Positions 46,357-48,394 of a DNA stretch of 64,000 bases are shown piece by piece. The DNA lies in the NCBI GenBank assembly GCA_014332745.1, contig JACONL010000002.1, positions 18,371 through 82,370 of the forward strand, given 5' to 3'. The stretch is from Alphaproteobacteria bacterium GM7ARS4. GTDB lineage: Bacteria > Pseudomonadota > Alphaproteobacteria > GM7ARS4. Positions within the stretch are counted from its first letter, which is position 1. Every line of letters begins with the position of its first letter. The position numbers and the translations under genes were made by a program. The notes beneath the pieces are model-generated. The model did not search any database. It was not told the DNA's origin and saw only the letters and a program-made list of their open reading frames with translations.

Positions 46357-46740
46357 ATGATGACGGAGATAAGAAAAGCTCCTGCTGTGGAGAGTGGTGT
46401 CGTCCATTGGTGGTATCAACGGATGACGGCTGTTATGTTGGTCGTCTTAAGTGCATGGTTGGCATGGTCGTTTTTTATGATGGGGTCTCTGCCTCTTGAT
46501 GGGCGTTCTATGACAGAATATATGCGGGCATGGGTGAGTGATGGCGTCCATGGCGTGTTATTGGGTCTTTTGATGTTGTTGATCGCATGGCATGGGTATT
46601 TAGGGGGTTGTGTCGTCATCGATGATTATGTGCGTGTGCCATGGGTTCATCGTGCGTGGCATGTGGGGCTTGGTCTTGTTTGTGGTGTGTGTGCGGTGAC
46701 GTCTGTTCTCTCTGTTATGTCTTTGGTGTGGTTGTCATGA
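46357..46740 (+). CDS. sdhD: succinate dehydrogenase hydrophobic membrane anchor
   Basis: HWWYQRMTAV, HGYLGGCVVIDDYV motifs; stop overlaps sdhA ATG (ATGA). Confidence 0.85.
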   Translation: MMTEIRKAPAVESGVVHWWYQRMTAVMLVVLSAWLAWSFFMMGSLPLDGRSMTEYMRAWVSDGVHGVLLGLLMLLIAWHGYLGGCVVIDDYVRVPWVHRAWHVGLGLVCGVCAVTSVLSVMSLVWLS

Positions 46741-48394
46741 CGGCCTATGACGTTCAAGAACATCACTATGATGTCATCATTGTTGGCGCTGGGGGTTCAG
46801 GGCTCAGGGCGGGTTTAGGGGCCAGTGAGGCGGGGCTCAAGGTTGCATGTATGACCAAGATGCCATCGCCTTTATGTGCGAACAAGCGCCGCGCGCTGTC
46901 TTTGAGTTAGAGCATTATGGCGTTCCCTTTTCACGCACTGAGGATGGGAAGATTTATCAGCGTCCCTTTGGTGGCATGACGACACATTTCGGTCAAGGGA
47001 CGGCGCAACGCACATGTGCGGCGGCTGACCGTACTGGTCATGCGATCATTCATACGTTGTATCAGCAATCGTTGCGTCACAGCACGGATTTTTTCATTGA
47101 GTATTTTGTCCTTGACCTATTGATGGATGGTGAGGGCGCATGTGTGGGCGTGTTAGCGTGGTGTTTAGAGGACGGCTCTCTGCATGTGTTTCGTTCCCAT
47201 CAGGTTATTTTGGCAACGGGAGGGTATGGGAGGACATATTTTGCGTGTACCTCTGCCCATAGTTGCACGGGGGACGGCGGCGGCATGGTATTACGGGCGG
47301 GGCTTGTGTTGCAGGATATGGAATTTATCCAATTTCATCCCACTGGCATTTATGGGGTAGGCGTGTTGATAACGGAGGGCGCTCGGGGAGAGGGGGGGTA
47401 TCTCACCAATGCTGTGAATGAGCGTTTTATGCCGCGCTATGCGCCCCATGCCAAAGATTTAGCGTCTCGCGATGTCGTCTCGCGCTCGATAACAACGGAA
47501 GTCATGGAGGGACGGGGCTGTGGTGAGCGCAAAGACCATGCGTTGTTGCATTTACACCATCTCTCGCCAAAGGTGATAGAGGAGCGCCTGCCGGGCATTC
47601 GTGAGTCGTCGCGTATCTTTGCCAATGTGGACATTACGAAACACCCCATTCCCGTCATTCCCACGGTGCATTATAACATGGGGGGAATCCCTACCACGCT
47701 CCATGGGCAAGTCGTGACGACAGATGGCAAGGGCGGGGTGCGTGTGGTGGAGGGGCTGATGGCGGTGGGCGAAGCCGCATGCGTCTCGGTGCATGGAGCA
47801 AATCGTTTAGGCTCTAACTCTCTCCTTGATTTGATTGTGTTTGGACGTTCTGCCGCCAAGCATTGTGCCGACACGGTGACGCCGGGACAGAAACACAAGG
47901 CATTGGCAAAAGCCTCTATTGATAAGTCTATGGCGTATTTCGATAAGAGGCGACATGCGAAGGGTGATAGGATGACAGCATCCATGCGCCTCGAGATGCA
48001 ACATATCATGCAACGTCATTGTCCTGTCTATCGAAGCGCTGATGTGATGGAGGAGGGATGGAAAAAACTTCAGGCGCTGTACAAGAGCCGTGAGTCCCTC
48101 AGTGTGACCGACAGGTCGCTCATATGGAATTCGGATCTCGTGGAGACGCTGGAATATGATAACCTTATGGCGCAATCTATGGTGAGTCTTGCTGCTGCTT
48201 TGAACAGGAAGGAGAGTCGAGGCGCTCACGCCCGTCAAGATTTTCCCGACAGAGATGACACTCATTGGATGAAGCACAGTTTGCTTGCTCTTGATGAGAA
48301 AAAAGCCCATGTGGATATTTCTTATCGTCAGGTGACGACTGAGACAGGGATGAAAGGCGTGCCGTCTATCCCGCCAGTCGAGCGGGTGTATTAG
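46737..48394 (+). pseudogene. sdhA: succinate dehydrogenase flavoprotein subunit, disrupted: internal deletion/frameshift after residue about 41 removing the covalent-FAD His region
   Basis: Frame 1 46737-46910: [41 protein letters not shown] then out-of-frame tail [16 protein letters not shown]; frame 2 from 46847: [43 protein letters not shown]... continues as full SdhA to 48394; [14 protein letters not shown] segment absent. Confidence 0.7.

Follow-up and report, generated by a model that had tools for sequence, protein, structure and literature searches.

A 133-nt deletion splits sdhA in one assembly of an alphaproteobacterial population whose other assemblies carry the gene intact

Organisation of the sdh locus

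The window, by which we mean the whole 64-kb stretch of DNA that was analysed, contains an sdhCDAB operon lying between a gene of the MaoC/mesaconyl-CoA-hydratase family and acnA. In the sequence and in the list of its open reading frames, the flavoprotein gene sdhA is broken into two ORFs, a 57-codon 5' piece and a 515-codon 3' ORF. The features of the locus are as follows, where L081 and L082 denote loci on contigs with an intact sdhA.

44777 to 45847, + strand: MaoC-like / mesaconyl-CoA hydratase-family gene (L081 and L082 have the identical 356-aa product, with Pfam PF19315 MC_hydratase and PF01575)
45934 to 46347, + strand: sdhC, cytochrome b556 subunit, 137 aa, intact (TIGR02970, 94.3 bits against a cutoff of 52.3)
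46357 to 46740, + strand: sdhD, membrane anchor, 127 aa, intact (TIGR02968, 50.8 bits against a cutoff of 41.8)
46737 to 46910, + strand: sdhA 5' fragment, with 38 native codons (46737-46850), among them those of the GAGGSG Rossmann motif, followed by 19 codons that are made by the junction or out of frame, and a TAG
46844, + strand: polymorphic site 8 nt to the left of the breakpoint, where the window and the ENA contig have T and the JGI contig has C
46847 to 48394, + strand: sdhA 3' fragment ORF, 515 codons (TIGR01816 positions 75-584, 754.8 bits)
46852 to 46853, + strand: deletion junction, ...GCATGTAT joined to GACCAAG..., at which the window lacks 133 nt that the intact alleles have
48421 to 49221, + strand: sdhB, iron-sulfur subunit, 266 aa, intact (NF004616, 355 bits)
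49324 to 52083, + strand: acnA, aconitase, intact (919 aa on the intact contigs; Pfam Aconitase and Aconitase_C at L081 12721-15480)

The setting of sdhA is that of an sdhCDAB operon, with sdhC, sdhD and sdhB identified by NCBIfam models, and the TGA of sdhD (46738-46740) overlaps the ATG of sdhA at 46737 in an ATGA. The earlier note had taken sdhC, sdhD, sdhB and acnA to be in good order, and this was upheld: sdhC, sdhD and sdhB pass their NCBIfam cutoffs, SdhB and SdhD are residue-identical to those of the intact contigs (the exact SdhD product is present on both, the exact SdhB product on ENA, JGI and Logan contigs), a 137-aa sdhC is also called on both intact contigs, and acnA has no indel relative to the JGI contig. 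The SdhCDAB operon is conventional apart from its disabled flavoprotein gene, and represents no new kind of system.

Directly upstream of sdhC, the MaoC-like gene has only weak NCBIfam matches, to 2-methylfumaryl-CoA hydratase. A formate-tetrahydrofolate ligase gene occurs at L092 20889-21209, just past the right end of the window on the same contig. The mesaconyl-CoA-hydratase-family gene and this nearby ligase hint at a C1/ethylmalonyl-CoA (EMC)-type metabolism linked to SDH.

Reading the sequence afresh returned the two-frame layout of sdhA that had been proposed, with one frame starting at 46737 in the overlap with sdhD and ending at a TAG at 46908-46910, and the other running from 46847 to 48394. 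The two pieces share the SdhA model of NCBIfam (TIGR01816) between them: positions 1-34 are covered by the 5' piece and 75-584 by the 3' ORF, with 35-74 unmatched, in place of a single uninterrupted ORF of about 590-600 aa spanning the whole profile. By itself the 3' ORF scores 754.8 bits, above the trusted cutoff of 727.35, and the C-terminal catalytic motifs FHPTG, RGEGG, HYNMGG and ESRGAH can all be read in its 515-aa translation and align to solved SDHA. The N-terminal GxGxxG, present as GAGGSG, is confined to the 57-codon ORF and is not contiguous with the catalytic domains. The 3' ORF is native from 46853 onwards (D84 to Y596 of the intact protein), its first two residues, M and Y, being non-native; the 513 native residues left in it lack both the Rossmann motif and the FAD histidine.

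The missing 133 nucleotides

An intact 596-aa SdhA in a large protein collection, P0001, matches the 515-aa ORF with 100% identity, its residues 84-596 recurring there; its residues 1-42 match the 5' fragment in a tblastn search. Compared with this intact SdhA of the population, the window has residues 1-38 and 84-596 identical and the mch-sdhCDAB-acnA-fur neighbourhood in common, and lacks 133 nt, that is, residues 40-83 together with the frame. DNA alignment and blastn coordinates against the intact contigs, from which the segment was extracted, place a single clean gap of 133 nt (3n+1) at window 46852/46853, equivalent to nt 117-249 of the gene, from position 3 of codon 39 to position 3 of codon 83. 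The lost residues include His48 of the RSHT covalent-FAD motif, and the deletion shifts the sdhA frame by +1; the offset of +2 between the two sdhA frames calls for a loss of 3n+1. The lesion stands out as a single discrete change in DNA that otherwise hardly differs, and is not a chance pattern.

Alignment with the intact allele thus bears out the proposal of an internal 3n+1 deletion that removes the covalent-FAD histidine segment, with its size revised: about 40 residues, or 120 nt, had been estimated, whereas the true loss is 44 residues and 1 nt. The same proposal had the N-terminal segment run up to an MTK; the first 38 residues are indeed native, but the MTK is a product of the junction (AT joined to G ACC AAG), the native residues being I39-S40-K41, encoded by ATT AGC AAA at the left edge, where the native sequence reads ATTAGCAAA. 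The two alleles can be told apart by the junction 30-mer AGGTTGCATGTATGACCAAGATGCCATCGC and the intact-specific k-mer CCTACCCGTAGTCATACGGTGGCGGCGCAAGG.

The deleted stretch is almost invariant, even in alignment with mitochondrial SDHA structures. The intact allele aligns end to end with SDHA structures (PDB 9kq3_A, 1yq3_A, 1nek_A; E=1e-252); relative to canonical SdhA/SDHA, the window lacks the loop with the covalent-FAD His and the part of the FAD-binding domain next to it, and carries the Rossmann motif on a separate ORF. Relocation of the segment within the window was ruled out, as it is absent from the 64 kb when searched at up to 3 mismatches, and a compensating paralog inside the window was likewise rejected, tblastn giving no second sdhA or frdA copy there.

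Could the two pieces nevertheless work as a split or re-coded SdhA, either as two polypeptides or through ribosomal frameshifting? The out-of-frame ATG at 46847 has a weak AAGG upstream and could start the 515-aa ORF, but 44 residues of a nearly invariant segment, among them the FAD-linking His48, have no codons, so that recoding cannot restore them. With the codons physically absent, recoding or a functional split gene was discarded, and we regard such an arrangement as next to impossible.

Intact alleles in near-identical genomes

The protein P0001 is encoded on two metagenome contigs, in the same gene order as in the window (asd, the MaoC/mesaconyl-CoA-hydratase-family gene, sdhC, sdhD, sdhA, sdhB, acnA, fur).

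ENA ERZ23486321 'AGAR17-1_SAMN04939365' scaffold_28, 95.8 kb
JGI 3300017830 Ga0189854_1000096, 39 kb

At the DNA level the window is 99.8-99.99% identical to the intact contigs over 47-61 kb (0.01-0.15% divergent). For the JGI assembly the comparison takes in three contigs and about 61 kb of the window.

Window 1-14337 against the JGI contigs: 0 mismatches, no indels
Window 16497-64000 against the JGI contigs: 6 mismatches; the sole indel is the 133-nt deletion

From the ENA scaffold the window differs by about 45 SNPs and at one 9-nt tandem repeat, and the scaffold also has two 100-N gaps. Two SNPs, one intergenic (25794) and one synonymous (54116), are private to the window and make it an independent consensus and not a copy; it also runs on continuously across two JGI contig breaks. 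By these comparisons it is an independent and otherwise accurate consensus of one micro-diverse population that it shares with the intact contigs. Logan contigs of SRR10406138 cover 12.5 kb of the window and stop short of the junction. Among species-representative genomes the nearest SdhA is only 64-67% identical, so that the junction is not reconstructable from them; two closer relatives, P0002 and P0003, 78% identical, are also full length.

These intact alleles bear directly on the scale of the loss. The earlier note had suggested that succinate:quinone oxidoreductase would be inactive in the organism, which is too broad, given that two assemblies of the population encode the intact 596-aa SdhA. 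Had the lineage dispensed with the enzyme altogether, sdhA would be an established pseudogene, a reading with which the window agrees insofar as it has no second sdhA/frdA copy and no displaced copy of the deleted segment. It is contradicted by L081 and L082, from genomes 0.01-0.15% divergent that carry the intact allele, by the full-length proteins of the 78%-identical relatives, and by the freedom of sdhA, sdhB, sdhC and sdhD from secondary mutations. We consider an organism-wide loss very improbable. Whether the deleted allele is real or an artefact, the population as a whole encodes a normal SdhCDAB.

Is the deleted allele on record anywhere else? In the protein collections, none of the exact products that the window could encode is found (the 515-aa ORF, the 57-aa ORF, or the alternative starts of 506 and 472 aa), and across the protein and contig collections searched neither the junction nor a truncated product appears in other deposited sequence. 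In homology searches the 57-aa junction peptide matched nothing but unrelated short SdhA N-termini, none above 75% identity, and a 241-aa N-terminal fragment of the intact protein retrieved no fragment from the window's organism. When metagenomes were scanned with a 23-nt pattern from the left flank, the single match, in an unrelated high-GC gene, was dismissed as chance.

Dozens of SdhA N-terminal fragments of at most 100 aa are on record, some of them on long contigs, such as P0143 on a 603-kb contig; split sdhA calls recur across public assemblies. The split 'FAD-binding protein' fragments, exemplified by P0163 (74 aa, on a 3.9-Mb contig of Sphingomonas sp. MMS24-JH45), resemble the window's 5' piece in being short N-terminal ORFs with GxGxxG, but they come from unrelated lineages and none has the window's junction.

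Origin of the deletion

Weighing these sequence comparisons, we incline, with little more than even confidence, towards a real and very recent loss-of-function variant of sdhA in the window's population. An intact allele in very close relatives beside a disabling lesion here is what a recent pseudogene would look like, the surrounding assembly is accurate, with no other indel relative to the JGI contigs, and slippage-type indel polymorphism occurs elsewhere in the population, in the copy number of a 9-nt repeat near 14330.

The alternative that we take most seriously is that sdhA is really intact and that the deletion arose in the library or the assembly, through a local misassembly, two contigs wrongly joined where the population is polymorphic, or a chimera made by in-vitro template switching where coverage was low. 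Only this assembly shows the junction, which occurs nowhere else in the collections searched, and both other assemblies of the population carry the intact 596-aa gene. There is no decay downstream, either in the 3' ORF, which is 100% identical to the intact protein, or in the partner genes, and the zero decay of the 3' ORF fits an artefact as well as it fits a very recent event. Strong selection is to be expected on sdhA: SDH belongs to the core of the TCA cycle and, in EMC-pathway methylotrophs, also serves the assimilation route (PMC3227643), so that a null allele should be strongly counter-selected. The sister assemblies are themselves flawed, with 100-N gaps and duplicated flanks in one (ENA) and 42 unmatched nt at a contig end in the other (JGI), and, if the window is one of the published MAGs, it came from subsets of reads that were re-assembled over several rounds with IDBA-UD or Celera Assembler (PMC7313196). 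Against this, no further indel relative to the JGI contigs occurs elsewhere in the 64 kb, and a lone chimeric read would not normally win the consensus. We give an artefact an appreciable chance, though one short of even.

The fine structure of the breakpoints informs both readings. The earlier note had ascribed the deletion to a short direct repeat, GACCAAG, but this repeat is not in the intact allele, whose left edge is the sequence given above, and the 133-nt deletion has 0 nt of microhomology. On the intact JGI contig (L082 8750-9200) no direct or inverted repeat bridges the breakpoints, and a repeat of at least 19 nt (k-1) shared by the joined ends is absent, the longest junction-related identity being 9 nt. 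There is thus no repeat or overlap of a length that would mislead a de Bruijn or overlap assembler, and a purely computational misjoin lacks a mechanism.

What does recur is the 9-mer at the junction, ATGTATGAC (ATGTAT followed by GAC), which is found again within the deleted segment, in ...CATATGTATGACACC..., at an offset of 98. The window allele can be written as the intact gene minus 103 nt between copies of ATGTAT (6 nt) and minus 30 nt between copies of GAC (3 nt). In a post hoc test, an internal junction k-mer of at least 9 nt was recreated by only 0.53% of the 20,180 possible 133-nt deletions in a 20-kb locus. To this recurrence we attach moderate weight: a polymerase that switches template twice at microhomologies would be expected to leave such a footprint, and neither a random cut nor the collapse of a repeat by an assembler would. 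In-vitro polymerases likewise switch templates at microhomology, which counts in favour of an artefact made during library preparation.

A real allele would be the outcome of a single replication event with two serial template switches at microhomologies. Its setting would be a micro-diverse population of host-associated Alphaproteobacteria, probably symbionts of a Lamellodysidea sponge and of the 'Ca. Methylospongiales' type. The first switch would have led from ATGTAT to ATGTAT, skipping 103 nt, and the second from GAC to GAC, skipping 30 nt. As the intact allele persists in the population, the product would be a segregating or sample-specific loss-of-function allele, and not a property of the organism.

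The same two steps could be imagined as independent deletions separated in time, the 103 nt lost first and the 30 nt later, in a gene already dead. The arithmetic of the allele is equally that of two such losses, at the ATGTAT and the GAC copies, but this requires two rare events within 133 nt at only about 1e-4 SNP divergence from the intact genomes, with no other decay, and no intermediate allele was found (a junction with only the 103 nt removed would read GCATGTATGACACCATCAAGG). Sequential deletions deserve scarcely any credence beside a single event.

One further feature lies close to the breakpoint. In about 61 kb only three SNPs are private to JGI, and the polymorphic site at 46844 is one of them; its adjacency to the breakpoint is a post hoc statistic. 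The SNP and the deletion would form a single assembly-graph bubble, which fits two co-existing haplotypes resolved differently by different assemblers and speaks for a real allele.

The sponge setting is suggested by the likeness of the window to published genomes. Working on metagenomes of Lamellodysidea sponges, Agarwal, Podell and colleagues (BioProject PRJNA320446), whose project the 'AGAR17' in the ENA label fits, produced two 'Ca. Methylospongiales' MAGs of 52.0-53.3% GC and 1.6-1.8 Mb, from Illumina reads by iterative re-assembly with IDBA-UD or Celera Assembler (PMC7313196). The window's GC content of 52-53%, its C1/EMC-type neighbour genes and its alphaproteobacterial, mitochondrion-like SdhA all fit these MAGs.

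Functional consequence

Mutants of the covalent-FAD histidine, E. coli FrdA H44 and yeast Sdh1 H90, have their succinate oxidation abolished; these are point mutants, which still fold and bind FAD non-covalently. The window allele goes further than either, with 44 residues missing and the frame broken, and no partial activity is expected of it. From the established biochemistry of SdhA and FrdA, we infer that neither piece of sdhA could bind FAD properly, and flavoprotein biochemistry likewise predicts no succinate oxidation by SdhCDAB in a cell whose only sdhA is this allele, in spite of intact SdhB, SdhC and SdhD.

The cost of such an allele would depend on metabolism. In the model methylotroph for the EMC pathway, the TCA cycle has SDH in common with the assimilation pathway, and the reactions of the latter are predicted to be essential (PMC3227643). 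If this organism uses the EMC pathway, an sdhA null allele would be costly. It is conceivable, though we think it rather unlikely, that an SDH-null sub-lineage exists at appreciable frequency in a reduced-genome, sponge-associated methylotroph, beside intact cells, and is sustained by metabolites of the host or of its siblings (a Black-Queen-style loss). Such a sub-lineage would show the erosion of the TCA cycle in a symbiont at its very first step, before secondary decay.

A real allele would show that part of a host-associated bacterial population can lose a core respiratory enzyme, and the locus would offer a dated, mechanism-resolved case, by serial microhomology slippage, of the beginning of gene death in a symbiont. 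If it is an artefact, it amounts to a quality flag for the assembly, from which an annotation pipeline would wrongly call the TCA cycle, and possibly EMC-linked assimilation, broken. Gene-inactivating deletions and assembly-level indels are both already well known, and either way the knowledge about SDH is unchanged.

Other differences among the assemblies

Several smaller differences emerged from the same comparisons. The 9-nt tandem repeat, CTCATGAGG, lies at 14322-14339 in a minus-strand ApbA/ketopantoate-reductase-like gene (ORF 13468-14484), and the window has one more copy than the ENA scaffold, an in-frame polymorphism of 3 aa; the JGI contig Ga0189854_1000249 ends at window 14337, inside this repeat. 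Of the two 100-N gaps in the ENA scaffold, one (L081 5616-5715; window 42452-42506, in leuD) has a 55-nt duplicated flank, and the other (L090 17905-18004; window 34401-34569, in a Cu-oxidase_4 gene) replaces 169 nt. Both break gene calls and are artefacts of the ENA assembly, not of the window. The first 42 nt of JGI Ga0189854_1000096 are unmatched, beside window 37948-37989 where the window runs on, and look like a contig-end artefact of that assembly.

Some of the SNPs between the ENA scaffold and the window or JGI contigs are clustered, with 12 in 193 nt at the 5' end of acnA (49500-49692), 5 in 97 nt in an MltA-like gene (30605-30701) and 4 in 220 nt at 44971-45190. This suggests small recombination tracts or a locally mixed consensus in a micro-diverse population.

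About 2.5 kb beyond the right end of the window (L092/L093 16346-19534), a 1062-aa ORF without a Pfam match on record adjoins glnE. Over the whole window, strand asymmetry tracks gene orientation, the coding strand being rich in G and T: GC skew rises to +0.24 and AT skew falls to -0.28 where genes lie on the + strand, and GC skew is negative at 2-8 kb, where they lie on the - strand. This asymmetry gives rise to spurious ORFs in alternative frames that are rich in Cys, Val, Gly and Trp.
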